The notes: generated from the letters alone by a model not told the origin. DNA of 64,000 bases from Chiloscyllium plagiosum (GCF_004010195.1 NC_057755.1:8905306-8969305); one strand, 5' to 3'; shown: positions 1,271-51,993, numbered from the stretch's first letter. Made by a program: numbers and translations.

Positions 1271-1281
1271 ACAGCAAAAGC

Positions 1282-2460: not shown

Positions 2461-2469
2461 GGTTTATCA

Positions 2470-12993: not shown

Positions 12994-13043
<50 letters not shown>

Positions 13044-14634: not shown

Positions 14635-15539
14635 TTATTTGTACAGTTTAACAATTCGAGCAAAAGGATATTTCACTCCATTGATTAACTCCTCTCTGAA
14701 TTTCGTTTGTGTTAGAGCGTATATGCAAGTGTTTGTGCACGAACTCAGAAGTCGTAGCATGAATCCAATTTCTTGAAAGATAAATATTGGATGGTTCAAT
14801 GTCTTGTCTTTATAATTATAGTTTATTACTTGCCAGTTGAAAGAGTGTACGACATACATCATCCACAACAGTATAAAATTACCAGACAATGCAAAGAGCA
14901 AGATGATGGATTTTCTCCGGTTTACCACCTCTGGATCAGTGTTATTCTGTACATTTCCGTGGATCTGAAGGCGACAGCGGATGCGGTTAGCTGTTATAAT
15001 ATTCCTGACAGTCAGAGCATTGAATACCGATATCAATACAATTGGAAGCAATGGTGTAAGTATACTGTCAATCCATTCATATATTTTCCAAAATAATGAT
15101 GTATAATAGTCTGATTTTGTGATGCAAAACCATGGTACATTGTCAATAACAAAGGAAGGAATAAATGCAAAATACCAAGTGGTTGACTGCAAACAGCTGA
15201 CTATGCTCACAGACACTATAACCATTAATGCAGTTCTCGTATTGCAATATCTTGCTCTTAGCTTTTGGCAACAAATTGCTACAAACCGATCAAATGTGAA
15301 AGCAACTGTGAACCAAACTGAACAGTCCAGGACTGCAAGGAACATGGCAATTCTCAAGGCACACACAGGAGTGATGAATAAGAAATTAACTGGGAAATAA
15401 AGATTGTTAAGTCGGTCCAGTAATATATTAAGGATGACGAGAAGCAGATCTGCTGTAAACATTGCCAACAAATACCGAGTGATGCATTTGGAGAGCCCAC
15501 AGTTGCCTCGATTCAAGATAAAAATTCCCACTAAATTAA
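14635..15539 (-). CDS. GPR139/GPR142-like class A orphan GPCR, gene 1, coding exon 2 (TM1 end to C-terminus)
   Basis: Open frame with seven-TM hydrophobic pattern, LAMFTADLL (TM2), FTFDRFVAIC (TM3) and SSCTNTCIY (TM7). Acceptor ttttctttcag at 15540+, phase 1. Confidence 0.95.
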
Positions 15540-15768
15540 CTGAAAGAAAAATGAAGAAAGGTACACCCCTGCATGACCAGAGTCACAGCAAAAAAAATCA
15601 CCATTATATGTCTGCTAAATCACACCATTTGCCTCTGATTAATATATTCACTCACTTACATAATGCATGGTGAAAAGTTACAATGCAAACAAACCATCAT
15701 GAAAGAAAGACGTATGGTGAACCAATGGACAAACTGAATAAATGAACGAATAAATGAGAAATAAATAG

Positions 15769-16215
15769 TGTTATGAACGAAAAGTTCAGCTTTTCTCTGG
15801 TTTGGTTTGCTTTTAAGAGGCTGTCAGGTGTGAAGCTGCTAAAATCAACGAAGTGAGTCCAGGGTGATCATCCTCTTTATGTGGGTCCATTGCAGTAAGA
15901 CTCTCGGTTTGATTTTATCTTACGTGCCAAGTGGTGTTTATAGAGATTGTGGCACATATTTGGAACAGCACCGTTAAATTTGGGTAATCTGTTGGGTTTT
16001 CAGAATAGGTTGAGTTATTCTCCATTCCATTCCCTTTTACAGTGTTTCAATTTTACATCTTGCAAATTAATTCTATTTTGTATAAAACTCGGTGGTTGGG
16101 CCAACTGCATCAGATCTGAAGTATCCACTCCATACCTGCTTAAAAGAACGAGCAAAGTTAATATCCAGGTTTATTTCTTGAAAGGTTTTGAGAGTTTCTG
16201 TCCTGGTCCATAACA
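15769..16215 (+). mobile_element. Probable solo LTR of a second family, in the gene 1 intron
   Basis: Inverted termini TGTTATG...CATAACA, absent from the paralogous intron, with related sequence around 42600-44080. No clean TSD. Confidence 0.5.
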
Positions 16216-16769
16216 GATTGGTTACTTTGGATTCCCATTCGACGTATTAATTTGTCAAATATAATCCAAAAGCTGCGAGCATCACTCATGCTGTTTGGAC
16301 TCCAGAAAATTTTGGAAACTAGGTTACTGAAAGTATTTGAAGTAGAGATCGATACATTTTTGAAATATCATGGAGTTGTGAGTTATGTGGATCTGGAACG
16401 AAGGAAGAATTTTTACTTGAGGCAGATGAGCCATGATCTTACTGAACGGCCGACAGACTTGAGGATAACTTGCTTCTGCTTCTGTTTTCTAGGTTCTTAT
16501 ATCATACCAGGATTTTTTGAACATAATAGAAGTGTAAAAATTCAAACCTTGGAGATGACTAACATTAGAGGAAGAACTTCAAAAGGAATCAGAAAAATTA
16601 ACTTTATGCACCATGGTCTTTGATCTTTGAACTATTGAAAACTGGTTAAGAACAGAAGAATGCAGAACTACAATAATAAGACATTGAGGACCATGTCCAG
16701 AAATATATCCTTTGATGCAGGGAGGACAAATAGACAAAGGTGTTACCGAAACCAAACAACTGTTTGGGG

Positions 16770-17120
16770 TTTGCATGGTGGCTCATTGGTTAGCACTGCT
16801 GTTTCACAGCGCCACGTACCTGAGGTTAATGCCACCCTCGGGCAACTGTTTGTGGAGTTCTTATATTCTCCTCCTGTCTGCGTGTGTTTCGTCTGAGTGC
16901 TGCAGTTCCCTATCACAGTCCAAAGATGTGAAGATTAGTTGGATTGGCCCTGGCAATTTGTCCCATTGTATCTAATGATGTGCAGGCCAGATAGGTTAGC
17001 TATGGGAAATGCAAAAATTGTGGGAATAGGGTAGGGTGGACCATGGGAATTGATTAGATACTCTGAGGAGGATTCATGTGAACTCAATGCGCCGAGAATT
17101 CCACACGTAAGGATGCTATG
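16770..17120 (+). mobile_element. Old HE1-type SINE (pre-dates the duplication; counterpart at 37505-37875)
   Basis: gcatggtggctcattggttagcactgc head and V-domain, with flanks matching the copy in the gene 2 intron. Confidence 0.8.
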
Positions 17121-18034
17121 AACCGTTCTGTAGAAGGAAATTCAGGGAATATAATAGTTTTGAAATGTTAGAAGTGATGAGAAACAATGATCATTCGCAC
17201 AGAATCTGTTATCCTGCTCGTCCATCTTGACAAGAGAATTTTTATTTGAAAAAGTGATGTTTTATATTACACAAATGAACTTTATCACTACTCCAGAAGA
17301 AATTGAAGACCACATTTAACATAGCCGTGCAAAACAATGTTGGAATAAAAGTCTGAACAAACACTGTAACACGATCAGATATTTAATAGCTTCGATACGT
17401 TTTCCAAACCAACCTGTTCAGAGATGACATGACACGCCTCTGAAGCAAGTGTTACTTGAACCTGTACCTCCCTGCTCCACAGGTCGCGATGAATACTATC
17501 AATACAACAGAGTTGACTGTTTCTGGGAATTTATCTGGGAGCCAATGTAACTCACCGCTTTGAAATTGCAACATCCATATTGAAGACGTACATACAGTGT
17601 AATTACGCTGCGTAACTATGCTGCGTAATTATTTATTCAAGCCCACAATAGACAGACCCAATGGCAGCTATCATTGTACGGAAAGAACCCGGTGCTGCTA
17701 GTCTAATGGTTCGGGATTGAAGTTATTTGGCATTTCTGTGTGTAATAATGCAGGACAATATTTTGCATCTTCTGCCAGTCACTGCTCTTTGAAAAATTGT
17801 CAAAAAAAACACGAAAAAGACCACAGGACAGATCGATGACCAGGAATCACTAAAATATGTTTCTATACGACCACTTGCCAGAAAATTATTGCAAGCATCA
17901 CAAAACAAATGAGCTTAGATCGAACTATGTGGAAAGTGTGACCTCCCAACATTTGTAATTAAAGTCTCATTTAGTCATTACTTTCATGTACTCATTAGTA
18001 GACATTTAACATCTTCCACAGAATGTCGTGAGCA

Positions 18035-18580
18035 GTTTTGGGTTCTGTGTCTAAGAAAGGGTGTGTTGAACTTGAAGGGGTTCAGCGGAGGTTCATAAGA
18101 ATGATCCTGGGAATGAAGGGTTTTTCATATGACGAGTGGTTGTGGACCTTGGGTCTGTACGCAATAGGGTTTAGAAATACGAATGTGAATCTGATTGTAA
18201 CGTGCAGAATATTGAGAGATTTGGATAGAATTGACGTGGAGAAGATGTCGATCCTCCAAGGACACAATCGGGTCTAAGGGCACAGCCTCGGTGTGAAGGG
18301 ATGTCCCTTTAGAAGTGAGATGAGGAGGAATTTCTTCAGCCAGAGGATAGTGAATCTGTGAAAGTCATTGCCCTAGAAAGGCTATGGAGACCAAGTCACT
18401 GAGTGTATTGAGGAAGGAGATAGTTTTGTTTTTCAAGAATTAGGGGATCAAGGGTTACAGGGAGAAGGCAGGAAAATGGGATTAAGAAACACGAACATGT
18501 CAGACACGATTGAATGGTGGAGCAAGTTCGTTGGGCCGAATGGTTTAATTCTGCTCCTATGTCTTATCTCCTTATGTTTT
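18035..18580 (+). mobile_element. CR1/HER1-type LINE 3' fragment
   Basis: LEGVQRRFIRMILGMKGFSYDE...FFSQRIVNL, then a 3' UTR with a short repeat tail. Counterpart starts at ~39700. Confidence 0.85.
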
Positions 18581-19039
18581 TATGGACAAGTAGTGATTGA
18601 TACTTGATCCACACAATTGTGAGGCAACTAACATCTTCAGCAAAAAAGATTCCAACCACCGTCCTTTGATATTCAATGACATTGCTATCATAGAATCTAC
18701 CAGTATTCATACTCTGGGGATTACCATTGACCGAACCAGCCCTGGCTTAGCCGTATAGGTATTGTTACTATAACAGCAGCTCAGAGGTTCAGAATCCTGC
18801 CGTGAAAATCTCACCTTCTGACTCGTCAAACCTGTATCACCATCTCTAAAGTGCAAGTCAGGAGTGTGAGGGTATACAGCCACTTGCCTGGATGGGTGCA
18901 GCTCCAACAACACTCAAGAAACTCAAAACTATTCAGGACCTTCGAAAATTCTGAAGAAAACTCATACCGGACTCAAAAACCTATCTTTATTTTTCTCTCC
19001 ACATAAACTGTCAGATCCGCTGAGTTAATCTAACGTTTC

Positions 19040-20050
19040 TCGAAATGGAGAAAGGTGACCAGTGGCATTGCACAGGAATCAGTGCTGGGGCTATTGTTGT
19101 ATCTGATATGCATAAATGATCTGGAAGAGGGCAAGTTTGCAGATGATAGGAAGATTGGTGGAGTAGCATAAAGCAAAGGGGTTTGCCAAAGAATACAGAA
19201 GATAGACTGGATTTTGGGTTGAAAAGTAGCAGATGGAGTTCAATCCAGGCAAATGTGAGACATTGGGAAGTCTAATTCTAGACGGAATTATCCAGTAAAC
19301 GGAAGAGCCATGAGAATAGTTGATGAGCAGAGAGATCTGGGAGTTCAGATCCTTTGTACCCTGAATGTGGCTGCACAGGTGGATAAAGTGGTCAAGAAGG
19401 CATAGGGTATGCCTGCCTTCATCGGACGGGTTATTGAGTAAAAGAGCTGGCAGGCCATGTTAAAACTGTGCAAGTTTTTGTTTGACCGCATTTAGAACAC
19501 TGTATACAGTTCAGGTCGCCACATTCCCAAAAGGATGTGGCCAGTTTGGAGACGGTGCAGAAAAGATTTATGAGGATGTTGCCTGGTATGGAAGGTGCCA
19601 GCTATGAAGAAAGGTTGAGTAGGCTAGGATTGTTTTCATTAGAAAAAAGGAGCCTGGGGTGGGGGTGGGGGGGGGGGGGGGGACCTAAATGAGGTCTGCA
19701 AAATCATGAAAAGTATAGACAGAGTAGATGGAGAAAATAGCTTTTTCCCAGAGTAAAGGATTCAATGACGAGAGGTCATGCTTTCAAGGTGAGAGGTGAA
19801 AAGTTTGAGGGGGATATACGCGGCAAGTACTTTACACAAAGGATGGTAGGTGCCTGGAACGCGTTACCAGCAGGGGTAGTAGAGGCATGCACGGTAGTTT
19901 CATTTAAGATGCATCTGGACAGATGCATGAGAAGGTGGGGAGCAGAGGGGTATACATGCTTAGGAATTGGGTAACAGCTTTAGACAGTGGGTTTGGATCG
20001 GCTCAGGCTTGGAGGGTCGAATGGCCTGTTCCTGGGCTGTAACTTTACTT
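19040..20050 (+). mobile_element. CR1/HER1-type LINE 3' fragment
   Basis: KFADD motif region and TRGHAFKVRGEKF...FTQRMVGAWNALP. Confidence 0.9.
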
Positions 20051-21044
20051 TATTCATCTCTTTGTTGTTTGTTTACTTTGCTTATTGCAGATATCCGGTA
20101 TCCGCCGTAGCTTGCATTTATTCCATGATGTGTCAGTTTACTTGTTTTTCACCACATCCACAAACCATCAATCTGACGACTACCCACTCCCCCACCCGCC
20201 ACCCCGTCTCCCGGCCAATGCCACTCAGTGAAATCAGGCTATACCATCTAAAAAGACACATTGTAGCACCTCAACAAGGTCCCTGTCATCCTCACAGCCG
20301 CTACTGTCTGGAAGCAGAGGATAACTGCGATTGAAATCACGTGCAAATTTCATTCAAGCCACTCACCTTCCTGGCTTGGAAACACATAATCGTTCCTTGA
20401 GTGTTGCTGGATCAGTTAAGAGACATTTAGACAGCTTCATGGTTCGAAAATGTCAAGTATATGAAAATGGGACCAGTTCAGTTTAGCAATCCTGGTCAGC
20501 GTGAATGAGTTGCAACGAAGAGTCTGTTTCCGTGCTGTATGACTCTATGTACACTTACACCAAATGGTCTGCAGTGGTTTGAGAAGGCACCTTCTGAAGT
20601 GTAACTTGGGATGGGGAATACATGCTGACTCAGCCTGTCCTCTAATCTAATCTAATCTAATCTAAAAATTTATAAATAAACCAACTTCCGCAGACGAATG
20701 CAAACAACAATGAAATTGTTGACCTCCGTTCAGCAATGAACTACTAAAGAAACCACTGGAAACACAAAGGTTAGGAATAGCCAAAGTCAGGGAAATATGC
20801 CAAATTTCAATGAAGAATGAAGGAGTTGAGTCAAACAGGTTGAATGCAAACATAAAAACTAAAAGAATTGTGGATGTGGTAAATCAGAAACAAAAACAGA
20901 AGTTGCCGGGAAATGTTCTGAGGAAGACTAACCAAACCGAAATGTTAACACTGAGTTCTCTTCCCAGAAGCTACCCGACCTGCTGAATTTTCCCAATTGC
21001 TTCTGTTTCTGTTCACACAAACATAACTGCAATTAAGGACTTAC

Positions 21045-21114
21045 CAATAATACCAACACCTGCAAGTATCGGGTAATAAATACTTGCTGTCTGTAAGATT
21101 GCTGAGTATCCCAT
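21045..21114 (-). CDS. GPCR gene 1, coding exon 1 (MGYSAILQTASIYYPILAGVGII)
   Basis: ATG at 21114, 70 nt, donor GTAAGT at 21044. Phase 1 joins exon 2 to give ...GII-V-NLVGIFIL and completes TM1. Total 975 nt = 324 aa plus stop. Confidence 0.9.
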
Positions 21115-22060
21115 TCTGTCCCAATCAGGCCTGTCTGTTGCTGTTTAGTCAATGGACCTGTCTGTCTAAATACAAAGAAAATTGTCAAGACAGCCTAATT
21201 TTATTTGGAAGCTAAATGTCCAGTGAGAAAATAAATCTGGTTGAATCGCTAATTGCACAAGTTGCAGTAATCCGAATAAGAAGTAAATTAACCATTTTCC
21301 TTTGAGGGTTATTACGTAGTGGAATATATTTTGAAAAATAAAAAGACACTAATTTCCTGAGAACTTGAATTAGATTTTATTGTCTTGTGTACTGAAGTGC
21401 AAATGTACATGAGTGCAGTGAAAATTGTACAATGGGAACATTGCGAGGTCCATCTTACGTGCAATGGTATATCCGAACAAAATTTCAGGTACAATTTAGA
21501 AACATAATGTTCAAAGCTAAAACTGGAAAGACGTGATTTGAAATCTTTTCTAAAGACAGAACAATGCACCTAGCAATAAAGCTATTCTGTACTAGACTGA
21601 GATGCACGTTTCCCTTCATTATTGCTTTTTAAAATAAATTGAATACAGGTACAGGTTTTCCAGTGAGGGGAATCTCACACCTATGCCTAATTGGTCCCTT
21701 TCATTTCTGATGATAGAAAAGAGCTCTGCATTTCTAAGAGGAAATCCCATTCAGGGTTATCCGCAGGAATGTGTAACTGTAATTCCATCCTGATCTTTCC
21801 TGGCTAGAATTGTATTACAATGCATAAAGTCAGTGTTATGTGACAGTGCGGTTAGAGTAAGGTGTCAGGTGGGTAATGACAGACAACAGCAGATTAATTG
21901 AGTGCAAGGTGGTGATGGTGCCAAGGTAGCAGGTATGTAGGATGCTGACTGGTAAGGGGTTAGAATACCAAGTGGGATATGGGTAGTGTAGTGATTGAGT
22001 TCCCGGATTGGGGATGCTAACCTGGTCCAATCAGGGAGCCCTTGCTCAAAGTTGCAAATA

Positions 22061-22156
22061 CGATATCTTTGCCTTTTCTTTATTGTTTATTGAGATTCTT
22101 TGTTTTCTGGATTTTCTTTTCGTTTTTGCTTATTTGAAGCAAAAAAGGAAAACAAC
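22061..22156 (+). mobile_element. Short T-rich, A-tailed insert at the TATA position of the 5' LTR
   Basis: Lies between ...gttgcaaata and aaacagcaagtcggggttctgttcac; absent from the empty LTR. Confidence 0.6.
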
Positions 22157-23042
22157 AAACAGCAAGTCGGGGTTCTGTTCACTCTGAGAACTGGCTCTGA
22201 GGAAACCAGACCAGTGTCAGGTACTTGACATGTGTAAAAAAGGGTGACTTGGTAATAGGATACCGACCTCTGTGTAGGTATTTCATTGGCGACGAGCATG
22301 AGATTAATGATGTATCCAGACAAAAACGATTACGAGATGAAATCTAACTTGACCTCAAATGTTGTCATTCGAAATGCATCAAGTGGAGCATGTGAGTTGC
22401 ACGGCATGCCGATGGAAGAGGACACTCTCACCAGGCAAACTGACCTTGGGGGATACCTCTCGAGTGAAAGCAATTGCATCACCTCAGAACATAATCCTGA
22501 GTAGATATACTCCAGGTCAGCTCATACCAATAGCCTCAAAGCAAAACCAAACTTCGGTCAAACTGTGGACATTTCCTTCAGGATCAGAGCCAGCAAACCA
22601 TTGCAGTTGTTGCCAAGATGCGGGCTTGTGATTGTGAAAGAGTCCCACTCGACCTGAAGTGTATAAAAGTACTGACATGCCGGAATCCAGGTGTGTGCAC
22701 TCCCTAAAAAGCCCACAGACAGTTGGCTTGGAACACTTACATTGTTCAGCAGCATCCAAATCAGAACCAATCAAAATAAACATCTGTTAAATGGTCAACT
22801 GGTACTACTGGAGGTAGATAACAGCACAGATGTATCAGTGATTGCAGAACCAATCTTTAAAAAATTTTGCTCGGTACCCCAACTCTTAAGTTTGTGTAAG
22901 AGTTCTATTCCAGGGAATCTTTTCAGATTAAGTGGAGAACTTCAATTCTGTATGAGAAGCAGCTGGTTCAGTTTTCAACTGATACACTTTTATGTGCTCA
23001 AACTTTTCCAATTAGAAAATAGCTGCTTTTGCTTCACTCATT

Positions 23043-23335: not shown

Positions 23336-23339
23336 TGCG

Positions 23340-27390: not shown

Positions 27391-29571
27391 GATTGCAAAG
27401 CTGTGAGCATCATCCGTGATAAACAGGCTTCTGAAAGTATTGGTCACATACAACGGGACAGTATTTTCAAGCAAAGCTTTCCAGTATTTCCTGACATTGA
27501 ATGGCATTTGGCATGTTCATACAACCCCCTAACATCCACTGTCCAATGGTCTGGTGGAAAAATCAGTCCTAATATTGAAGGCAGGTTTAAAGAAACAGCT
27601 AACAGCTTCAGTCGATACCAGAGATCTCCAAGGTCTTGCTCGATTCTCGGACCATCCCTCACACAACAACAGGCATAACTCGAGCAGAGTTGCAGATGGG
27701 GAGAAGCCTCCGCACAAGGTTCAACTTGATATTCATGGACCTGCTGGGATGATGAACAGCATCATAAACACCAATACCAGCACATGTCTCCTCTAAGAAA
27801 GATAGATAGTTTACCTCAGTGGCGAAGTTTGATGTCGAAACCATATAAATAGCTGTGGATGAGTATGAGGTGAGGTCAATGTAATATCAGATTCTGGGGC
27901 TTAAAGACTTTGGGAAAGTGAGGTGGTCCTGAACAAACGTTTAGTTCATAACGAAGCTGCTACTTTGCATAGAGGACAGGAGCAATACACACTTGTCCCT
28001 CAAAACGGCCAGAAAGGCTGTCAGAAACCATGTGTTCTCCCTCTCTGTCTCGTGTCGAGGAAATTTCCGAGGCTCAGATGGATGCAGCCTCGACACATGC
28101 ACACACAGATAAGGGGGCTGAGTGACGTGGGGGAATATCAGCGGAACTGTTGTCCAGGGATCATGTAGGAGATAAATTAAAGAAAAGAGAAAGTGAAAAA
28201 AGGTAATAAAACCAACTATGTCCTCACTCTCGGCACTGGCTTTGAGCTGCATTGTTTGGAGCTCATGTGCAGTGTGCTTGGAAATAAATAGTGACTTTGC
28301 GAAGCGATACCAGCCTTTGCCCAGAACTTTCAGTGTTAAAAGAAAGCACTACATTATTACGAACGAGAATTTATTGGAAATCTAATTTGGAATGAAAGAA
28401 AACAGTCACTTGTTCCTTGGCAGATTGAGTCTGCCGTGTGCGACAAGGGTGGAAGCTGAACCCACAGTTGCTTTCAATCAGTTACATGAGCACAAATTAC
28501 CACGTCAGATTAATTGCTTTCAGCAATAATGCAGCCATTGTGGCTTTTCAGCGTTCATAGTCTGTCCTTAGATGCTCCTTGTAGGTGGCACAGTGCTGCT
28601 TCTTTTCGACGTGCTGGTAGACTGATCCACAAAGCCGTTAGCGAGGCAATTCCAGCATTTGGAGCAAGTGTCAGTGAAGGAACAGCAATTCATTTCCCAG
28701 TCGAAATGGTGAGTGATTTGGAGGGGAACATGCAGGATGTGGTGTTCCCGTATATATGCTGCCCTTGTCCAGATGAAAGTGGTCTCGTATTGGAATGTGC
28801 TGTCTCAGGAGTTTTCGTGAATTTCTGCAGTGTATCTGGTGCATACTGCTGTCACAGAGTGTCAGTTTTGGAGCGGATGGATGTTTCTGGATGTTGTAAC
28901 AATCAAGCGGGTTGCTTTATCTGATGGTGTCAAAAACGTTGCTTATACTTAGTGTCAGTGCTCAGTATTTTTTTCACAGTGAATCTTGGTGCTGAGTCGC
29001 AACATTCAGGGAACTGCTGAGATACTTTGACGTGCATGACCATCCACGGTATATTGTAATTAATGTGCTCAGGAATAAACAGGATAAAGTAATAACAAGT
29101 CACAGCTACAGACAGGAACTTAAACCTAAATTGGCATTATATGACAGATTGAACAAACAAACTTTAATGCATTACAAAGGACGGAGTTTCTGGAGTGTTG
29201 TCAATGTATTTTACATGCATAGTTTCTCCGATGTATAGTGTAAGTTGGTACACAATAAGGTAACAACTGGGCAAGTTGTTTTTTCTTTGGAAGCAAGGCC
29301 AGAGACTGAATATGAATTGTGGAAAAGATCTTTGTATCTTACATATACTCATCCAAACCGCTAATGATGCCAGTAAAAGTAGATTTCAGAATGACAGAAG
29401 TTTGGAAGATATTCAGTTTAATCTTTGCACTTCGTGGTAGTCAATCACTGAACATGTTCACACGACGTTGTCACTCAGCTTTCAGCATAAGAAGGGGAAC
29501 TGATTGATGACACAAAGCAAAGCATTAAATATATTGTTGTGGTTCTGGTGGCCAAGCTGGAAATTTTTTGT

Positions 29572-29614
29572 TGCAAACGTTTCGTCCCCTGTCTAGGTGA
29601 CATCCTCAGTGCTT
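29572..29614 (-). ncRNA. Minimal hammerhead ribozyme motif in the Penelope left arm
   Basis: Reverse strand reads CTGAGGA-tgtcacctagacaggggac-GAAACGTTTG. Confidence 0.65.
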
Positions 29615-30735
29615 GGGAGCCTCCTCTGAAGCGCTTCTGTGGTGTTTCCTCCGGCATTTATAGTGGCCTGTCCCTGCCGCTTCCGCTTGACAGTTTCAGC
29701 TGTCCGCTGTAGTGGCTGGTATATTGGGTCCAGGTCGATGTGTTTGTTAATGGAGTTTTGGATGAGTGCCATGCCTCTAGAAATTCCCTGGCTGTTCTCT
29801 GTCTGGCTTGCCCTATGATAGTAGTGTTGTCCCAGTCGAATTCATGTTGCTTGTCGTCTGCGTGTGTGGCTGCTAAGGATATCTGATCGGGGCGTTTCGT
29901 GGCTAGTTGATGTTCATGGATCCGGTACGTTAGCTGTCTTCCTGTTTCTCCTATATAGTGTTTTGTGCAGTCCTTGCATGGGATTTTGTACACTACATTA
30001 GTTTTGCTCATGCTGGGTATGGGTCCTTCGTTCTGGTGAGTTGTTGTCTGAGGTTGGCTGTTGGTTTGTGTGCTGTTATAAGTCCTAGTGGTCGCAGTAG
30101 TCTGGCTGTCAGTTCTGAAGTGCTCCTGATGTATGGTAGTGTGGCTAGTCCTCTGGGTTGTGGAACGACAACGGAACGAGGACATGGCGCAACCAAAAGG
30201 ATTAGCCACACTACCATACATCAGGAGCATTTCAGAACTGACAGCCAGACAACTGCGACCACTAGAACTTATAACAGCACACAAACCAACATCCACCCTC
30301 AGATAACAACTCACGAGAACGAAGGACCCCATACCCAGCATGAGCAAAACTAATGTAGTGTACAAAATCCCATGCAAGGACTGCACAAACACTATATAGG
30401 AGAAACAGGAAGACAGCTAATGATCCGGATCCATGAACATCAACTAGCCACGAAACGTCACGACCAGCTATCCTTAGCAGCCACACACGCAGACGACAAA
30501 CAACATGAATTCGATTGGGACAACACTACCATTATAGGGCAACCAAACAAAGAACAGCCAGGGAATTCCTAGAAGCATGGCACTCATCCAAAACTCCATA
30601 AACAAACACATCGAGCTGGACCCAATATACTAGCCACTACAGCGGACAGCTGAAACTGACAACCGGAAGCGGCAGGGACAGGCCACTATAAATGCTGGAG
30701 GAAACACCACAGAAGCGCTTCACAGGAGGCTCCCA

Positions 30736-30778
30736 AGGACTGAGGATGTCACCTAGACAGGGGACGAAACGTTTGCAA
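30736..30778 (+). ncRNA. Minimal hammerhead ribozyme motif in the Penelope right arm
   Basis: CTGAGGA (30740-30746), stem II gtcacct/aggggac, GAAAC with a palindromic stem III. Confidence 0.65.
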
Positions 30779-31152
30779 CAAAAGTTTCCAGCTCGACGAA
30801 CAGAACCACAACAACGAGCACCCGAGCTACAAATCTTCACCCAAACATTAAATACATTAGAATTTCGAAAAGGTCTTCACATGGAACAGAAAAGCAAAGA
30901 CTCAGCCCTTTAAAAAGTAATAGCTATGAGAGATTCCCAATCTCAGTGAAATATTATTCGAAATGCAATTTGTTATTTTTATACAGAAGTGGTTACTTCC
31001 CATTTTCGTGGTCGAGAGACGTTTTTCCAATTCTGAGGACATGGACTTCTTTTCAGTTAATGCAGCCAAGGAAATTCCAAAAGCTCTTTCAAATTGGAGA
31101 TCTTGTTCTAATACTGAAAGTAGATCTCCATATACAGGTCAGACCTGTATAC

Positions 31153-32057
31153 TTATTTGCACAGTTTAATAATTCGAATAAATGGATATTTTACACCATT
31201 GATTAACTCCTCTCTGAATTTAGTTTGTGTTAGAGCGTATATGCAAGTGTTGGTGCACGAATTCATAAGCTGTAGCATGAATCCAATTTCTTGAAGAACA
31301 AAAATTGGATCACTGAACGTCTTGTCTTGATAATTATAGTTTGTTACTTGCCAGTTGAAAGAGTGTATGGCATATGTCATCCACAACAGTATAAAATTAG
31401 CAGACAAGGCAAAGAGCAGGATGATGGATTTTCTCCTGTTTACCACCTCTGGATCACTATTATTCTGTCCATTTCCGTGGATCTGAAGGCGACAGCGGAT
31501 GCGGTTAGCTGTTAAAATATTCCTAACTGTCAAAGCATTGAATACCAAAATCAGCACAATTGGAATCAATGGTGTAATTATACTGTCAACCCATTCATAC
31601 ACATTCCAGAATAATGATGTTTTGTAGTCTGATTTTATGATGCAGAACCATGGTACATTGTCAATAACAACTGAAGGAATAAATATAAAATACCAAGCAA
31701 CTGACCGCAAACAGCTGACCACACTCACAGTTACTATAACAACTAATGCAGTTCTCATATTGCAACATCTTGCTCTTAGCTTTTGGCAAGAAATTGCTAT
31801 AAACCGATCAAATGTGAAAGCAACTGTGAACCAAACTGAACAGTCTATGGCAGCATCGAACATAACAACTTTCAAGGCACACACAGGAGTGATGAATAAG
31901 AAATTAACTGGGAAATAAAGATTGTTAATTCGGTGAAGTAAGACATTAAGGATGACGAGAAGTAGATCTGCTGTCGACATTGCCAACAAATAGCGAGTGA
32001 TGCATTTGGAGAGCCCACAATTGCCTCGATTCAGGATCACAATTCCTACTACATTAA
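31153..32057 (-). CDS. GPR139/GPR142-like GPCR, gene 2, coding exon 2 (exon 1 not in the assembled sequence)
   Basis: Intact 905-nt exon, same length and phase as gene 1, with acceptor ttttcttacag. About 50 differences in ~294 aa against gene 1 by manual count. Confidence 0.92.
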
Positions 32058-39298: not shown

Positions 39299-39605
39299 AT
39301 CAGGCATCAGAAAATGTATCTTCCAGCAGTACAAACACTAGAAAATTACTGCAATCATCCCCAGAAGACAAGCTTATTCTGAACTAAATGGAACATGCAA
39401 CCAATTCCCAGACATAAGAGAAGCGAAAATTGCATGCACTCATTAATTATTATCAGGCATCAGAAAATGTATCTTCCAGCAGTACAAACACTGGAAAATT
39501 ACTGCAATCATCCCAAGAAGACAAGCTTATTCGGAACTAAATGGAACATGCAACCAACTCACATACATACGAAAAGCGAAGTTGCATGCACTCATTAAAT
39601 ATTAT
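39299..39605. repeat. 2 x ~153 bp tandem duplication
   Basis: atcaggcatcagaaaatgtatcttccagc...gcatgcactcattaa is repeated at ~39299 and ~39452. Confidence 0.9.
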
Positions 39606-39870: not shown

Positions 39871-40370
39871 NNNNNNNNNNNNNNNNNNNNNNNNNNNNNN
39901 NNNNNNNNNNNNNNNNNNNNNNNNNNNNNNNNNNNNNNNNNNNNNNNNNNNNNNNNNNNNNNNNNNNNNNNNNNNNNNNNNNNNNNNNNNNNNNNNNNNN
40001 NNNNNNNNNNNNNNNNNNNNNNNNNNNNNNNNNNNNNNNNNNNNNNNNNNNNNNNNNNNNNNNNNNNNNNNNNNNNNNNNNNNNNNNNNNNNNNNNNNNN
40101 NNNNNNNNNNNNNNNNNNNNNNNNNNNNNNNNNNNNNNNNNNNNNNNNNNNNNNNNNNNNNNNNNNNNNNNNNNNNNNNNNNNNNNNNNNNNNNNNNNNN
40201 NNNNNNNNNNNNNNNNNNNNNNNNNNNNNNNNNNNNNNNNNNNNNNNNNNNNNNNNNNNNNNNNNNNNNNNNNNNNNNNNNNNNNNNNNNNNNNNNNNNN
40301 NNNNNNNNNNNNNNNNNNNNNNNNNNNNNNNNNNNNNNNNNNNNNNNNNNNNNNNNNNNNNNNNNNNNNN
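39871..40370. other. Assembly gap (500 N, true size unknown)
   Basis: Run of N. Confidence 1.
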
Positions 40371-41061: not shown

Positions 41062-41977
41062 TTATAGCTTTTTCTTTCGACTGAACAACATCAGAATAAA
41101 GGACAATGGGAATGTCAAAACCTTCTTCAGTTCTTCCCTGAATTTCCTTTGTGTGGCTGTATAAATGCATACGTTAGTGCATGAACTCAAGTACATGAGC
41201 ATGTAGCCGGTTTTTAGTGGCAATGTAGGCAGGAGCTGTATAATCACCTCGATAATGTGTAGTATTTGTTATCCTCGTAGATAAAAAGCTCACAGTGGCT
41301 GTTAGTCAGAGAAGAGTAAAACTTCCCCATATCGTGAAGAGCAAAATAATGGATCTTCGACTTTTCATCTCTGGTTCTCTTTGACTCTTATGAATGCCTC
41401 CCCCAGCCAGCTCTGCGAGATATATTGGCGAGTTCAATACGCCTGATGGTCAAGCAATTGAATGTGAATAGCAAAGAGAAAGGAAGCCAATGAACTAAGA
41501 CACTCTGTAACCAGGTGAATGCTCTACCCCAAGGTGAAGTGAACAATTTCAACTTAGGGCGGTAACCCCATTGTAAATGACCAATTGTTTGTTCAGGTTC
41601 ATACACAAACCAAAAGGGTATGTTTTCCAGGCAAACCAGGGTACTTGTGATCACTATCACTGCAGATGCTGTCCTCACTGTACATTACTTTGTTTTCAGT
41701 CTCACACAACATACCACTACATATTGATCAAATGTGAACAAGACGGTGAACCACACTGACATTAACAGTGTGACTGAACTCACATAGATCAAAAGCTTAC
41801 AAACTCCAGTGTAGGACAAGAATGAATGTGCAAAATGATAACTGAAAATTCGGAATGCAGTTACGTTGAGGATTTGGACCAGTAAAGCTGCTGTTGCCAT
41901 GGCCACTATGTCGGCAGCTGTACAAGTGGAAATGCCACAGTTTCCCCTGGAGAGAATGATCATTGTCACCAGATTCG
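41062..41977 (-). pseudogene. GPR139/GPR142-like GPCR pseudogene (gene 3), exon 2
   Basis: ANLVTMIILSRGNCGIS...SVWFTVLFTFDQY...SSCTNVCIY. Nonsense TAA at 41687-41685, frameshift near 41400, in-frame TGA at the TM6 Trp (~41308), frameshift near 41215. Confidence 0.92.
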
Positions 41978-43812: not shown

Positions 43813-45044
43813 AGACTATACAGCCTCTACTTATAACTCAAACTGCTAAACATGGAAACAGCTTAGTAAACCTCTTCTGATCCTTCTCGAGCTTCACAAT
43901 ATCCCTGCTACATCAAAAAGTTCAGAAGTCTTATCTAAAAATTCTGTTTTGTTTAAAAACTAAGTGGTTTGACCAGCTGTATCTCTCCGGGAAGATCCAT
44001 ATGACATCTGCATCAAACAGATGGGAAACTTAGGCTAATTTGTAGAATTGTTCTGTGGGGGCTGAACTGATCCTTAATAGGTGTAACCTCTGAGCTTGCC
44101 CCCTTCAAACCAACAGCAGCACCTCCACATCGTGGTAATTACCTCAAAATGGGTTGCAGAAGCTGTTCTGAAAATGGTTCACATTTATTCAGATGCAAAG
44201 ATGGACAGCTAAATCAATTCAGCTTCCCTGTTCTTGCATTTACCACACCGTGAAAATAAGTTGCTCAATGACCCTGAACATAGACCTCAACAGTTTCTGA
44301 TCAGTCTTTTCGAATCACCAGTGTTCGACTTCTTTGAATAATCAGAAAACAGACACCAGGCCTTTTGCTCAAACAGCAGATTAAACAATTTCGAAAACGT
44401 ACATAAACGTAAGCAGACTAAATTTAAGCAGTAAAGCAATGCTGAAATTTAAACCCCAATCTTCTCTGATTATAGCCTGTATTCTGGCTCCAAAACAGCT
44501 AGACAAGGAGGCACATTAAGGAAGAAACAAAAAGGAGGAAAAAAAAAGAGCTTGCTTCAGCTGTTTCCACAATCCACAACATGACTGTCACAAGCGACTG
44601 TACCTCGCTGGTTTTCAGATCACACTGTGTGACGATGCTGTCACTTTCAAAGGCTATTTTCTTCTCGTCTTTTTTGTTTGAGGTTGGGTTGTCGGGCAGT
44701 GCTGCCGGCCTGGCTAAGTGAAGATGATTTGAGAAATCAACTTGTGATGCTTTCGGAGTTTTGTTTTTACATTGGAACAATGTGAGCAGCCTGAATCTGG
44801 GATTGGTCAGCCCTCACAGATCCAGTGATCCGGGTTTTTATTTTAGTAAAATCAGAAACTGTGGTGGGTCTCAGAAGAGTTGGTAGCGAGAGTGAATGAT
44901 TCCAGCTGCTAATATTTTAAAAACTTGTTTTTTTCTTTTTGTTGCTTATTCCTCCTGCGTTGGAGAACTGCATGAAAGAAACTGTGCCTGAGTTTGCCTC
45001 TTCTTTTGCCAACAGGTATGCCTGTGGCACGTCCCAGCATTTAG

Positions 45045-45370
45045 GGTTGCATGGTGGCTCAGTGGTTAGTACTGCTGCCCCCCCCCCCCCCTCGCCAGCA
45101 CCAGGGACCGGGGTTCAGTTCCAGCCACAGGTGACTGCGTGTGTGGAGTTGGCACATTCTCCCTGTGTCCATGTGGATTTCCTCTCGCAGTCCAAAGATC
45201 TGCAGCATAGGTGATTTGACCAAGATAAATTGCCCATTGTGTTCATGGATGTGTCGTTTCGGTGCTTCAGTCAGGGAAATGTCGGGTAATGAGTCTGGGT
45301 TCGATACGCTTCGACGTTGGGTGTGGACTTGTTGGGCTGAAGGGCCTGTTTCCGCACTGTAGGAATTCTA
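45045..45370 (+). mobile_element. HE1-type SINE
   Basis: gcatggtggctcagtggttagtactgctgcc head, V-domain and gggcctgtttcc tail. Confidence 0.85.
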
Positions 45371-46309
45371 ACTCAAAGAAACAACTAAATGGCAGTAGGT
45401 ACTGTATCTATCATTTGGTTTATTTTCCCAATAGTTAAGGCATTCTACATTAATCTTTCTTTTCTTTGTATTAGTTCCCTTGATCTGAGTATCAGCCTAT
45501 TATAGTCAAGGGATGGAAAGGGAACTGACAGGCACAGGGATCCCCTTGTGGCCGTTCCCCTCAATAACAAGTCCGCCATTTTGGATACCGTTGGGGGTGG
45601 ATGGCTTATCAGGGGTAAGCCATGGGGTACAGGTCTCTGGCACGGAGTCTCTCCCCGTTTTGGGAGGAGGGAAAGGGAGGGGATGAGCAGAGCAATGGTC
45701 ATTCGGGACTCCATAGTTGGGGGGACAGATAGGAGGTTCAGTGGAAATAACAGAGAATCGCTGTTGGTGTGTTGCCTCCCAGGTGCCAGGGTTCATGAAA
45801 TCTCAGATCGTGTTTTCAGGGTCCTTGAGGAAGATGGGGTGCATCCCCAAGTTGTGGTCCACATAGGTACGAAAAACATAGGTAGGACAAGGGATGGGGA
45901 TTTAAGACAGAAATTCTGGGAGCGAGGGTGGAAGTTTAGTGCTGGAACAAAGCACATTGTTACCTCTGGTGTGTTGCCCATGCCTTGTGCTCGTGAGGCA
46001 AGGAATAGGAAGGGAGAGGATCAGGTGGCTACAGGGATGGTGCAGGAGGAACGGTTTCTGATACCTTGATAATTGGGGCTCATTCTGGGGTAGATTTAGG
46101 ATACATAGGATGGGGAAGGAAATTGCAGGGAATGGGCAAAATTGAATGGTGGAGCTTATTCAAGGAAGAGCTACTGTGTATCCTTGATAAGTATGTACCT
46201 GTCAGGCAGAAAGCGTCAGAGCGAGTGAGAGGGCCATGGTTTACTAAAGAAGTTGAATCTGTGGTCAAGTGGAAGAAGGAGGCTTATGTTCGGATGAGAT
46301 CATGAAGTT

Positions 46310-48371
46310 GCAGAAGTTGCAGGATCAGTTCATTCCTAAAAGGTAGAAAGATCCCAAGAGGAGGCATGGGCGGCCTTGGCTGACGAGGGAAGTTAAGAAA
46401 CATATAAAGTTAAAAGAGAAAAAGTATAACATAGCAAAGATAAGTAGGAAAACTGAGGACTGGGAAGCTTTTAAAGAGCAACAGAGGATTACTAAGAAGG
46501 AAATACGCAGAGGAAAAATGAGGTAAGAAGGTAAATTGGCCAATAATATAAAGGAGGATAGTAAAAGCTTTTTTAGGTATGTGCAAGGCAAAAAAATGGT
46601 TAGGACTAAAGTTGGGCCCTTGAAGACAGAAACGGGCATATATTACTAGGAACAAAGAAATGGCAGAGGAATTAAATGGGTACTTCAGATCTGTGTTCAC
46701 TGGGGAAGACACAACCAATCTTCCTGAGGTAACAGTGGTTGAAGGACCTGAACTTAAGCGAATTTATATTTGCCAGGACTTGGTGTTAGAGAGACTGTTA
46801 GGTCTGAAGGTTGATAAGTCTCCGGGGCCTGATGGTCTGCATTCCAGGGTACTGAAGGAGGTGGCTCGGGAAATCGTGGATGCGTTGGTGATTATTTTCC
46901 AGAGTTCGATAGATTCGGGGTCGGCTCCTGAGGATTGGGAGGGCTAATGTTATACCACTTTTTAAGAAGGGTGGGAGAGAGAAAGCAGGAAATTATAGAC
47001 CAGTTAGTCTGACCTCAGTGGTGGGAAAGATGCTGGAGTCTATTATAAAGGACGAAATTACGGCACATCTGGATAGTAAAAACAGGATAGGACGGAGTCA
47101 GCATGGATTTATGAAGGGGAAATCATGCTTGACTAATCTTCTTGAATTTTTTGAGGATGTAACTATGAAGTTGGACGAGGGAAATCCAGTAGATGTAGTG
47201 TACCTGGACTTTCAGAAAGCTTTTGATAAAGTCCCACACAGGAGGTTAGTGAGTAAAATTAGAGCGCATGGTATTGGGGGCAAAGTACTAGATTGGATTA
47301 AAAATTGATTGGCTGATAGGAAATAAAGGTAGTGATAAACGGCTCCATTTCGGAATGGCAGGCGGTGACCAGTGGAGTACTGCAGGAATCAGTGCTGGCA
47401 CTGCAGCTTTTTACAATATATGTTAATGATATAGGAGATGGTATCAGCAATAACATTAGCAAATTTGCTGATGATACAAAGCTGGGTGGCAGGGTGAAAT
47501 GTGATGAGGATGTTAGGAGATTACAGGGTGACCTGGACAAGTTAGGTGAGTGGGCAGATGCATGGCAGATGCAGTTTAATGTGGATAAATGTATGGTTAT
47601 CCACTTTGGTGGCAAGTACAGGAAGGCACATTACTACCTAAATGGAATCAGAGAGATCTGGGTGTTCTTGTACACCAGTCAATGAAGGCAAGCGTGCAGG
47701 TATAGCAGGTAGTAAAGAAGGCTAATAGCATGCTGGCCTTCATAACAAGAGGAATTGAGTATAGAAGCTGCTTCTGCAGCTGTACAGGGCCCTGGTGAGA
47801 CCACACCTGGAGTACTGTGTGCAGTTCTGGTCTCCAAATTTGAGGAAAGACATTCTGGCTATTGAGGGAGTGTAACGTAGGTTCATGAGGTCAATTCCTG
47901 GAATGGCGGGATGACCTTACACTGAAAGACTGTAGCGACTGGGCTTGTAAACCCTTGAGTTTAGAAGACTGAGATGGGATCTGATTGAGACGTATAAGAT
48001 TATGAAAGGATTGGACACTCTGGCAGCAGGAAACATGTTTCCACTGATGGGTGAGTGCCGAACCAGAGGACATAGCTTAAAAATACGGGGTAGACCATTT
48101 AGGACAGAGATGAGGAGAAACTTCTTCACCCAGAGAGTGGTGGCTGTGTGGACTGCTCTGCCCTAGAGGGCAGTGGAGGCCCAGTCTCTGGATTCATTTA
48201 AGAAAGAGTTGGATAGAGCTCTCAAAGATAATGGAATCAAGGGTTATGGAGATAAGGCAGGAACAGGATACTGATTAGGAATGATCAGCCATGATTATAT
48301 TAAATGGCGGTGCAGGCTCGAAGGGCTGAATGGCCTACTCCTGCTCTATTGTCTAATGTCTATTGTCTATT
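46310..48371 (+). mobile_element. Younger CR1 LINE (RT domain to 3' end) nested in the older CR1
   Basis: KSPGPDGLH, QHGFMKGKSCLTNL, YLDFQKAFDKVPH, KFADDTKL, a (tattgtc)n tail and short flanking duplication tgagat. Confidence 0.9.
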
Positions 48372-49198
48372 GAGATGCAAAGTCTCAGTTAGGGCGCTTG
48401 TGAGTTACCAAATAACAAGGGAAGACGTAAAGAAAGGGCTAACAAGAGCGAGGTGGGGACATATAAAGTTGTTGGTAGGAAAACCCGATCAAGCAAAACC
48501 CAAAAGCTTTCTCTTGGAGATCAGACATAAGAGAATAGTGAGAGAAATATTAGGACCAATCACAGACAGCAGTGAGAAATTGTCTGAGGAGAAGGGGACA
48601 CACAAAATGAATATATTTGTCAGTATTCACACTGGGAAAGTACAATGTTTCAAGGGGAATACCAAGATATAGGCTACTAGTCTCGACGGGATTGAGGGTC
48701 ACAAGGAGGATCTGGAAAGTGTGAAAATAGATAGGTCCCCTGGACGGGTTGGGATTTATCCTAGGATTATCTGGGAAGCCAGCGAGGAAGTTGCACAGTC
48801 TTTGCCTTTGATCTTTATGTCGTCAATGTCGACAGGAATAGTGCCAGAATACTGGAGGATAGCAAATCTCGCCTTTTTCGAGAGGTAGAGACAATCGTGG
48901 TAATTGTAAACCTTTGAACCTTACTTTATTTATGGGTAAAGTGTTGGAAAAGGTTATAAGCAATAGAATTTGTAATCATTTCGAGAGGAATAAGTTAAAC
49001 CTTATTGAGATCTTTGAAATGGTGACCAAACAGGTGAGAGAAGGTGAAGCGGTTGATGTGCTGTATACAGATTTCAGTAAAGTGTTTGTAAAGGTTCCCC
49101 ATGGTAGGTGATTGCAGAAAATACGGTGGCATGGGATTGAGGGTGATTTAGTGGTTTGGATCAGAGATTCGCTTGCTGAAAGATGGCAGAGGGTAGTA

Positions 49199-49518
49199 GA
49201 TTAGATTAGATTACATTACAGTGTAGAAACAGGCCCTTCGGCCCAACAAGTCCACACCGACCCGCCGAAGCGAAACCCACCCATACCCCTACATTTACCC
49301 TTTACCTAACACTACGGGCAATTTAGCATGGCCAATTCACCTGACCCTGCACATCTTTTGGACTGTGGGAGGAAACCGGAGCACCCGGAGGAAACCCACG
49401 CAGACACGGGGAGAACGTGCAAACTCCACACAGTCAGTCGCCTGAGGCGGGAATTGAACCCGGGTCTACAGGCGCTGTGAGGCAGCAGTGCTAACCACTG
49501 TGCCACCGTGCCGCCCAC
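49199..49518 (-). mobile_element. Young HE1-type SINE
   Basis: Clean head ggcggcacggtggcacagtgg, V-domain and (aatct)n tail on the reverse strand. Confidence 0.93.
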
Positions 49519-50349
49519 AAAGTGTTGATGGGAAATGTTCGTCCTTGGGTTCAGTTACTAGTTGCGTACCACACATTCTGTTTTGGAGCCACTGCTGTTT
49601 GTCAATTTTGTAAATGACCGAGGTAAGGTTTTTGGAGGATGGTTTAGTAAAATTGCGGGTGATACCAGGTTCGGTGGAGTTGTGGATAGTGCTGAGGGAT
49701 GTTGCAGATTATAGAGGGACGTAGATAAACTACAGAGCTGAGCTGAGAGGGGGCAAATGGAGATTAATGCAGAAAGGTGTGAGGTGATTCACTTTGGAAG
49801 GATCAACAGGAGTAAAGAGTACTGGGCTAATGGTAAGATTCTTGGTAGTGTAGATCAGCAGACAGATGTCAGTGTCCATGCACATAGATCCTTGAAAGTT
49901 GCTGCCCACGTTGATTTTGTTGTTAAGAAGGCATACGGTGTGTTGGTTTTTATTGGTGGAGAGATTGCACTTCGGAACCATGAAGTCATGCCATAGCTGT
50001 ACAAATCTCTGGTGCGGCCGCACTTGGAGGATTGCATACAGTTCTGGTCACCGCATTACAGGAAGGATGTGAAAGCTTTGTAAAGGGTCCAGAGGAGATT
50101 TACCAGGATGTTGCTTGGTTATGGACAACACCCATCGCTTTATCCCTGTTGATAACCTCATGTAGCTAGCTCTTGTGCACCTCACATTTATTTATTCCGT
50201 ACAATTCTCAAATCAAAACAGGTGGTGAAGAACGGTCAAAAGGTGAAATGACTGAATGACCACAAAATCGTAAATGATTTAACAATTTGTTGTCAAGGAA
50301 CTCTGTTGAAGCGGGAGCTGGGTGGATGTGACATTGACATTGGCAGGAT

Positions 50350-50525
50350 GATGTTAAAAATCCCACAACACCAGTTTATAGTCCAACAGGTTATTTAGAA
50401 GCACTAGCTATCGGAGCGCTGGTGAAGGAACAGCTCATGCCCCCAATTAAACCTGTTGGACTATAACCTCTTACTAAGGGATTTTTAACTTTGTCCATCA
50501 TAGTCCAACACGGGCGCCTCCAAAT
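50350..50525. mobile_element. Inverted pair of Penelope-like termini with a 12-bp TSD
   Basis: gttaaaaatccc...tatagtccaacagg / cctgttggactata...gggatttttaac, with TSD cattggcaggat at 50338-50349 and 50526-50537. Confidence 0.8.
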
Positions 50526-50726
50526 CATTGGCAGGATAGGTTGAGACAGTGATTTGTAAATCACCACACATCCTCAGTTCATTGCCGGAGGAACAGTGGG
50601 CAATTGCAAATAGATTATGTTCAATGTGTATCAGGCACTACTTTCACCTCACCTGGAATATTGTGTTCAGTTAGAGGTATGTTCAACAGGAGTGAAGCCA
50701 CTGAGGAGGTCAGAAAATAATTAAAT

Positions 50727-50729
50727 GTA

Positions 50730-50772
<43 letters not shown>
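50727..50772. repeat. (TG)n(TA)n microsatellite
   Basis: Read directly from the sequence. Confidence 0.95.
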
Positions 50773-50774
<2 letters not shown>

Positions 50775-51499
50775 CGAAAAGAAGTAGGCCAGTCAGCCCT
50801 TCTGGACAGTTCCACAATTTGAATCACCTCAATTCGCACTTTACTGTCCACTGTCCCTATCCCTTCAACACATGATTCATCAAACGTCTTCCTCCTCTTT
50901 AGCACTACACATTGTCCCAGCACCTACCACACACTGTAGTTATGAATTGCACAGGTTCAGAATTAATTCCTCCGCTTGTCCATTTTACATCTACTCCCCT
51001 ACATTCCAAAACGGTGACCTCTCATTCTAGATTGACCCACACGATGCAACAGCCACTCTGCATCTACTCTGCTGATTCCTTTTCATGTCTGATGTACCTT
51101 TACCAGTTTCCCCCCTCATTCTTCCAAAGTCCGGAGAGTATAGGTCAGTAACAGTGAATCTCTCTCCACTGACAAAACTATCAACTCTGCATTCAGTTGA
51201 GAGAACCACCTTTGATCTATCTTCAAAGCAAGGACATCGCTCCTCAGCAAAAGCGATAGAAACGTTTTTGTTGTGCTCCATATGCAGACTCTCTAATGCC
51301 TTGTATAGTTGCAGAAACACCTCCTTATTTTGTACCCAATTTCTTTTGCAATAAGTGAGCATATTCTGGTTGCTTTATTGAATATCTTCTCTCCCTGCAA
51401 ATAGGAGGTCACTGATTTATGATCAGGAAACTTGGTGAAAGCTCACACTTCTGAATATACTTCCATTTGAAGCTCAGAATCACGTCCTTCTGCCCCCAT

Positions 51500-51725
51500 T
51501 TTTGATTAGAATCCCGACAGTATGGAAGCAGGCTATTTGGCCCAACATGTCCACGCAGCTTAGAAGGTGCTGGAAAAGCACCGCAGGTCAGGCAGCATCC
51601 TCCAATGGCACCACTCTAATCTTGACTCTGATCTCCAGCATCTGCAGTCCTCACTTTCGACATGTCTACACAGGTGACCTGGTGCTGTGAGCCAGCAGTG
51701 CTAACCACTGAGCCACTGTGCCATT
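51500..51725 (-). mobile_element. Deleted HE1 SINE containing a collapsed inverted Penelope-terminus insert (~51559-51659)
   Basis: The insert is flanked by acatgtccacgcag (51545-51558) and acatgtctacacag (51660-51673). Confidence 0.65.
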
Positions 51726-51923
51726 CATAATTTCCATGTTACCATGTGACGTATATACCTCTTCACTGAGCACATTGCCCGAAAGTTATCACTCAAACTG
51801 TTGCAGGGAGTCAGACATCCCTTTCTGATCAATAACAATTTATTCATTGTGTGAAACAGGTGAGAGTGACGCCACAGTATGAGACAAGTGAATGTGTGAA
51901 ATAACAGAACGTTATTGACTTAC

Positions 51924-51993
51924 CAGGAATGCCAAAGGCTGCTAGAATCGGGTAGAAAATTGTCTTCATCTGCACAATTATTGACTGCACCAT
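51924..51993 (-). pseudogene. GPCR gene 3, exon 1 (MVQSIIVQMKTIFYPILAAFGIP)
   Basis: ATG at 51993, 70 nt as in gene 1, donor GTAAGT at 51923. Phase 1 joins 41977 to give GIP-A-NLVT. Confidence 0.88.

Follow-up and report, generated by a model that had tools for sequence, protein, structure and literature searches.

A tandem cluster of GPR139-related receptors in Chiloscyllium plagiosum and a candidate chemosensory-type family expanded in cartilaginous fishes

Introduction

Human GPR139 and GPR142 are orphan G-protein-coupled receptors (GPCRs) of class A that L-Trp and L-Phe activate. The ancestor of the group to which they belong has been argued to bind aromatic-ended peptides (PMC8557429), and Rinne et al. 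2019 (PMC6504862) named in silico, from gar, coelacanth and fishes, three orphan gene sets close to GPR139/142, the “GPR210A/B” sets. Cartilaginous fishes have been described as GPCR-poor (PMC8455134), and, although their olfactory organs are large, published counts give a mean of 43.8 olfactory receptor genes (range 20-62) and 2-5 for taste receptors (PMC10869828). Here we analyze a 64,000-nucleotide stretch of the shark Chiloscyllium plagiosum (GCF_004010195.1 NC_057755.1:8905306-8969305; “the window”), which holds three tandemly clustered class A GPCR paralogues, genes 1 to 3. They belong to a class A receptor repertoire under birth-and-death evolution, whose expansion is real at the level of the family and more than chance.

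The three loci, all on the minus strand, are the only members of the family in the window, where a tblastn search found no further fragments. Genes 1 and 2 have an intact exon 2 and are 83% identical in amino acids and 89% in nucleotides over that exon. Gene 3, at 37-39% identity to the other two, is a pseudogene from a distant subfamily, with in-frame stops (TAA at 41687, TGA at 41308) and frameshifts near 41403 and 41213. The first-pass annotation of this DNA had described three such same-strand paralogues, one of them a pseudogene of a distant subfamily, and had taken them for a lineage-expanded family; both descriptions stand.

Size and distribution of the family

Evidence for expansion came from a search with exon 2 of gene 1. 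At E<=0.001 it matched 2198 clusters (90% identity) out of 3243 candidates; the 2198 may include distant rows outside the family. Within the best 120 clusters, 118 come from chondrichthyans, with 21 species of shark, ray and chimaera represented. In the 50% library, a profile search recovered 141 representatives at E<=1e-30. The closest matches to gene 1 exon 2 are in zebra shark (80%) and bamboo shark (77%). In a single species, the horn shark Heterodontus francisci, at least 59 distinct clusters with a median identity of 54% lie on 19 sequences, 13 of which are at least 19 Mb long; one sequence carries 19 clusters. Tandem arrays elsewhere are shown by runs of accessions that follow one another on one contig in Heptranchias, Chiloscyllium and Scyliorhinus. 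One 74.9-Mb sequence of H. francisci carries gene-1-type and gene-3-type members together, and the mixed cluster of the two types may therefore be old. The copies thus number far more than a handful, and the earlier proposal of a clustered, lineage-expanded birth-and-death family is borne out by these counts, the tandem arrays, the tree described below and the pseudogene.

Most database models of the family are named “probable G-protein coupled receptor 139”; others are labeled vasopressin-, capa-, GPR15-, GPR142- or sex-peptide-receptor-like. The motif encoded by exon 1, just before N1.50, is present in 70 of the best 120 models, missing from 37 and was not located in 13. Because many annotations omit this small exon, counts by name or by full-length model undercount the family. 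Models named as zinc-finger or RING proteins also match it (P0374 of whale shark; P0162 and P0322 of bamboo shark), which suggests that the receptor clusters adjoin zinc-finger and RING/TRIM arrays.

Relationship to GPR139, GPR142 and a bony-vertebrate sister gene

Phylogenetic trees were built with FastTree (216 rows) and IQ-TREE (49 rows) and rooted on invertebrate-type and amphioxus rows; they hold no true GPR139 or GPR142 sequences. Proteins covering fewer than 250 profile positions were dropped (220 of 305 kept), and eight redundant rows were removed. Chondrichthyan names are attached to about 140 of the 180 rows of the family, and the rest are nested within the clade; all 10 of the deep-branching rows among this remainder that were looked up proved to be chondrichthyan. 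The family together with a gene of amphibians, sturgeon and bichir has support of 100/100, and the family alone lies on one side of a branch with support of 94/66 (IQ-TREE). This sister gene, for which frogs, salamanders, a caecilian, sturgeon and bichir yield a single 90% cluster per species, is apparently single-copy and is 66-74% identical across amphibians (for example XP_069092602.1, named “probable GPR139”); the matches listed include none from teleosts, coelacanth, lungfish or amniotes. Outside the family and its sister lie two further bony-vertebrate lineages (coelacanth/silverside and anchovy/bichir/caecilian) and amphioxus; of the three bony lineages, two are thus separate from the shark family and the third is its sister. 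Since chimaera rows are spread over separate subclades and the clade of gene 3 includes stingray, the tree places the expansion in the chondrichthyan stem, before the holocephalan split.

Additional evidence on kinship came from profile searches of solved structures in the PDB. GPR139 was the best match for the family, at 67.7 bits against 51.9 for CCR5, and for the amphibian sister, at 63 against 41 bits for the next receptor; it was also the top match for a zebra shark member. Exon 2 of gene 1 alone matches GPR139 at E=1.3e-4. By hand count, the zebra shark protein P0003 shares about 71 of 267 residues with human GPR139, about 27%. By comparison, the zebrafish orthologue of GPR139, a gene of two exons, is 70% identical to the human protein (PMC7318219). 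Genes 1 and 3 have two exons, with an intron in transmembrane helix (TM) 1, in phase 1 and in the codon just before N1.50. The exon junction of GPR139 itself presumably lies just before N1.50 as well.

The action of Trp, Phe and agonists on GPR139 requires F109, H187, W241 and N271 (PMC5430874). Genes 1 and 2 keep one of the four, W6.48. Across the 180 family rows, none is kept in 7, one in 129, two in 39, three in 5 and all four in 0. The amphibian sister keeps F3.33, W6.48 and N7.39, three of the four, together with a basic residue at 6.51, in 22 of 22 rows. Given this retention in the sister, the ancestor probably had a GPR139-like site for aromatic ligands, which the shark copies would have rewritten. 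The family is best described as grown from a vertebrate lineage separate from GPR139 and GPR142, one that survives in amphibians, sturgeon and bichir as the apparently single-copy sister gene, and not as a multiplied copy of either. The earlier label “GPR139/142-like” holds as a statement of relationship and fails as one of orthology on identity, binding residues and copy number. The amphibian sister (P0219 and relatives) is itself an odd conserved orphan: N1.50 is replaced by S and D2.50 by N in all rows, with N2.50 also in sturgeon, and its pocket is nearly invariant despite these changes.

Variability of the predicted ligand pocket

The ligand pocket was defined as 26 positions, numbered from conserved motifs. 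Entropy within the family falls from 2.37 bits in the pocket to 1.49 at the remaining TM sites and 0.66 on the G-protein face, versus 0.13, 0.54 and 0.30 bits among amphibian orthologues. Distinct 26-residue pockets number 169 in 180 family rows and 8 in 22 amphibian rows. Tree-based site rates point the same way as the entropies, in the family (pocket 1.29, outer TM 0.98, inner TM 0.64, G-protein face 0.29) and in amphibians (0.28, 0.72, 0.92 and 0.40). In same-species nearest pairs (n=22), differences are 1.56 times as frequent in the pocket as at the other TM sites. These data show a G-protein face that is fixed in the shark family, with a variable outer half and pocket.

The two intact copies in the window were compared directly. 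Genes 1 and 2 are under purifying selection, with omega (the nonsynonymous to synonymous rate ratio) of 0.43 (0.29-0.65) overall, 0.63 in the outer half and 0.30 in the inner half. Their differences fall at 9 of 26 pocket positions versus 43 of 274 other sites (p=0.026), with charge changes in the pocket at 2.61, 3.33 and 4.56, and at 1 of 16 sites of the G-protein face. The diversification that the first-pass annotation had claimed is therefore supported at the pocket by entropy, by the number of distinct pockets and by the differences between genes 1 and 2.

Fold and motifs

The receptors in the window match Pfam 7tm_1 at E=1.7e-15 and 1.8e-17. The AlphaFold2 model of gene 1 has seven helices, helix 8 and a hairpin in extracellular loop 2 (ECL2), with a mean predicted local distance difference test (pLDDT) score of 78, and its product is modeled as a functional-looking seven-TM (7TM) fold. 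Across the family, R3.50 is kept in 178 of 180 rows and Y7.53 in 176; the cysteines of the C3.25-ECL2 disulphide are kept in 176 (C3.25) and 177. P6.50 is retained in 45 of 180 rows and lost in 135. Genes 1 and 2 have DRF and NTCIY and lack P6.50; gene 3 has DQY (R3.50 changed to Q), NVCIY and D2.50 changed to A.

These unusual motifs, which the earlier annotation had reported correctly, are no sign of a sensory role, as they are either inherited or variable. Human GPR139 has NFFLY in TM7, and P7.50 is found in 0 of 13 outgroup rows and 0 of 22 amphibian rows; because the NPxxY proline is already missing in GPR139 and the outgroups, its absence says nothing about a sensory role. Sequence membership speaks against descent from the OR, TAAR, V1R or T2R families: all 61 members examined match 7tm_1, and one of the 61 matches 7tm_4, weakly (E=0.0013). 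Look-alike clusters include FMRFamide-receptor-like groups with the nematode Srw chemoreceptor Pfam domain.

Proposed function and alternative explanations

We explain this pattern by the expansion, in the chondrichthyan stem, of a single gene of the GPR139/142 (MIP/FMRFamide-receptor-related) group into a large family that still gains copies by local tandem duplication and loses them as pseudogenes. The paralogues would share one G-protein route, of Gq/Go type by kinship with Gq-coupled GPR139, and each would bind a different water-soluble ligand. Peptides or amino-acid derivatives are likely ligands, because the modeled pocket is open and charged, the receptors have an ECL2 hairpin and a C3.25-ECL2 disulphide, and their relatives bind aromatic amino acids or peptides. 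Expression would be sparse, in olfactory microvillous neurons, taste cells or solitary chemosensory cells of skin, gill or gut. We consider it quite likely that the family is a ligand-diversified sensing repertoire, if the tissue is left general. That it senses the outside world from chemosensory cells is the narrower reading that we prefer, with odds that fall a little short of even. Slightly less likely again, the receptors may form an undescribed seventh vertebrate chemoreceptor family, derived from a GPR139-group sensor of aromatic amino acids or peptides, exceeding OR, TAAR, V1R, V2R and taste receptors combined and parallel to the nematode srw expansion from the same stock. If so, the “receptor-poor shark nose” would merely reflect searches confined to the six known families.

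Several observations weigh against a chemosensory role of this kind. The position sets for the pocket and the G-protein face come from general class A knowledge and not from a structure of the family. The difference in rate between the pocket and other outer-half TM sites (1.29 vs 0.98) is not significant (p=0.12), so that rapid change marks the outer half no less than the pocket. The contrast with amphibian rates is drawn against a far shallower tree (length 2.8 vs 47.9), and omega above 1 was not observed. In cross-species nearest pairs (n=11) the pocket ratio is 0.84, compared with 0.1-0.33 in amphibian pairs; pocket conservation this weak is compatible with olfaction but equally with relaxed constraint or an arms race. 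The nose of the catshark is reported to consist almost entirely of microvillous neurons of the Go/TRPC2 type, in which V2R expression is robust (PMC10116579), and a missing family is therefore not required there. Catshark OR genes are, moreover, expressed outside the nose (PMC11979771).

The receptors might instead serve immune or irritant sensing in the manner of MRGPRs or FPRs, in granulocytes, mast-like cells or nociceptive neurons that respond to microbial, parasite or damage peptides. This proposal, which we judge unlikely, predicts the same genomic signature of clusters, turnover and a variable outer half, and it accommodates pockets that vary in cross-species nearest pairs too. In two database models a member of the family is fused to a zinc-finger or RING gene, a hint of neighbourhoods of fast-turnover arrays, but such neighbours are not known to tell immune clusters from olfactory ones. 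While cartilaginous fishes are reported to be without MAS1/MRGPR relatives, leaving the niche open (PMC8455134), the characterised relatives of the family are neural or gut sensors of nutrients and peptides (PMC7318219, PMC8557429). A different suggestion is that the family detects the animal's own diversified peptides or reproductive cues, in gonad, gut endocrine tissue or brain. Protostome receptors of the group expanded together with their own neuropeptides, and the ancestor is argued to have bound aromatic-ended peptides (PMC8557429). A fold search with Foldseek ranked NTSR1, SSTR1 and CCK1R first at near-equal scores; GPR139 was absent from its top 50, and the search could not tell the class A peptide receptors apart. 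Receptors for endogenous ligands are usually low-copy with a conserved pocket, as in the amphibian sister, which is a poor fit to dozens of copies per genome, species-specific bursts and pseudogenes, and we know of no matching expansion of peptides. An own-peptide role is thus improbable.

Copy number might also have drifted in a mostly neutral way in repeat-rich shark genomes, by unequal crossing-over, the copies being retained mostly for dosage or decaying slowly and the outer half varying through relaxed constraint. The surroundings of the three loci are indeed repeat-rich, one of the three copies is dead, omega is below 1 in both halves of the receptor and the pocket does not differ significantly from the rest of the outer TM region. 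However, genes 1 and 2 are both intact at a synonymous divergence (dS) of about 0.21 with a low inner-half omega, the G-protein face is nearly fixed over 180 rows at identities down to about 43%, and subfamilies are common to sharks, rays and chimaera; drift as the main explanation is consequently very doubtful. Finally, the genes could be conventional GPR139/GPR142 orthologues or recent duplicates, sensing Trp and Phe. The names of most database models, the rank of GPR139 among solved structures and the two-exon gene structure agree with this view, but the low identity compared with the zebrafish orthologue (PMC7318219), the absence of the complete four-residue site from every family row and the presence of C3.25, which GPR139 lacks, leave plain orthology effectively refuted.

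The genes themselves are already in public annotation, and their expansion has probably gone undescribed. The literature searched, subscription papers aside, holds no account of this receptor expansion, and the main texts of PMC11979771, PMC8455134, PMC10620051 and PMC6368271 do not mention the family. In the supplements of PMC8455134, as far as they were searched, “GPR139” was not found; one orthogroup there, OG0000365 (157 proteins, 12 taxa, PF00001), is a candidate for the receptor family. Whatever the function, at least 59 distinct members in one shark under one automatic name contradict the view that these animals are poor in GPCRs. A sensory function would make it a new chemoreceptor family of vertebrates, and an immune one the equivalent in sharks of MRGPR/FPR. 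For the ancestral ligand, the conserved sister gene of amphibians is a tractable starting point.

Gene models, tandem duplication and surrounding DNA

The coordinates of the three loci are given in Table 1. The 70-nt first exons of genes 1 and 3 and the phase-1 intron in TM1, as described in the first-pass annotation, are confirmed for these two genes.

Table 1. Receptor exons, introns and duplicated units in the window (positions from the first nucleotide of the stretch)
Feature	Position	Strand	Description
Gene 1 exon 1	21045..21114	-	70 nt, 23 codons plus 1 base; short N-terminus and start of TM1
Gene 1 intron	15540..21044	-	5505 nt, phase 1, GT...polypyrimidine-CAG ends
Gene 1 exon 2	14635..15539	-	intact; remainder of 7TM receptor
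Gene 2 exon 2	31153..32057	-	intact; acceptor as in gene 1
Assembly gap	39871..40370		500 N; likely site of gene 2 exon 1
Gene 3 exon 1	51924..51993	-	70 nt, phase 1, GTAAGT donor
Gene 3 exon 2	41062..41977	-	pseudogene: 2 in-frame stops, 2 frameshifts
Tandem duplication unit with gene 1	11046..22168		collinear non-coding blocks
Counterpart unit with gene 2	22169 to >=39867		enlarged by element insertions

Exon 1 of gene 1 has an ATG, an open frame, a GTAAGT donor and an in-frame stop upstream, and the N-terminus of zebra shark P0003 agrees with it at 18 of 23 residues. The spliced open reading frame (ORF) is 975 nt (324 amino acids) with a single stop at its end. The intron of gene 3 is 9946 nt. 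Eight assembled-contig proteins were examined as possible spliced transcripts; exon 1 was present in 0 of the 8, three of which enter intron-like sequence before N1.50 and five of which start after N1.50. For exon 2 of gene 1 no RNA source was listed, a negative that argues neither for nor against transcription. For gene 2, no match to exon 1 was found in the window, including the stretch between genes 2 and 3. This exon probably lies inside the assembly gap, because collinear homology to the gene 1 intron reaches 39867, adjoining the gap. Since the gap intervenes, the distance from gene 3 to gene 2 is a scaffold estimate.

A single tandem duplication, spanning at least 11 kb, gave rise to genes 1 and 2. 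The collinear non-coding blocks of the two units are 74-80% identical, equivalent to 0.23-0.31 substitutions per site; the dS of 0.21 between the second exons of the two genes is similar to this flank divergence. Gene conversion between the two genes (longest identical run 57 nt) is therefore not needed to explain their similarity.

Among the ORFs listed for the window, no flanking host gene was recognised. Downstream of gene 2, at 29534-30814, lies a 1.28-kb inverted repeat (92%) that is absent from the gene 1 copy and holds an ORF with a GIY-YIG-like motif, which we take to suggest a Penelope-type element. Positions 1-5900 are GC-rich (56-61%) and contain remains of a long interspersed nuclear element (LINE), Tx1/L1-like by appearance, with reverse-transcriptase-like ORFs at 3525-4322 and 4753-5877. 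A 153-nt unit is present twice (92%) at 39299-39605, in the gene 2 intron near the assembly gap.

Comparison with known systems

The shark family resembles GPR139/142 in its two-exon gene, in YY-x at the start of TM1, in the lack of a proline in the TM7 NxxxY motif and in W6.48. Important differences are that the shark family is multicopy, has the C3.25-ECL2 disulphide and has largely lost P6.50, and that F109, H187, N271 and R244 are mostly replaced. With the receptor of amphibians, sturgeon and bichir it shares a short N-terminus, motifs of intracellular loop (ICL) 1 and of ICL3-TM6, and the disulphide; that receptor differs in having one cluster per species and a nearly invariant pocket. 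The three bony-vertebrate lineages found here occupy the tree position of the three GPR210 sets (PMC6504862) and probably match them. No genome of a shark or ray is among those listed in that survey, in which the word “shark” does not occur and no expansion is described (PMC6504862).

There are parallels with the vertebrate chemoreceptor families (OR, TAAR, V1R/ORA, V2R, T1R and T2R), which also form tandem clusters on many chromosomes, evolve by birth and death, include pseudogenes and combine a variable outer half with a conserved G-protein face. Unlike them, the shark family has a coding intron in TM1, and it is related to them only as class A. In the MRGPRs and FPRs of tetrapods and the srw receptors of nematodes, class A GPCRs resembling peptide receptors expanded independently to form sensing repertoires. 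These arose in different lineages, and their bearing on the shark family is one of analogy, not of membership.

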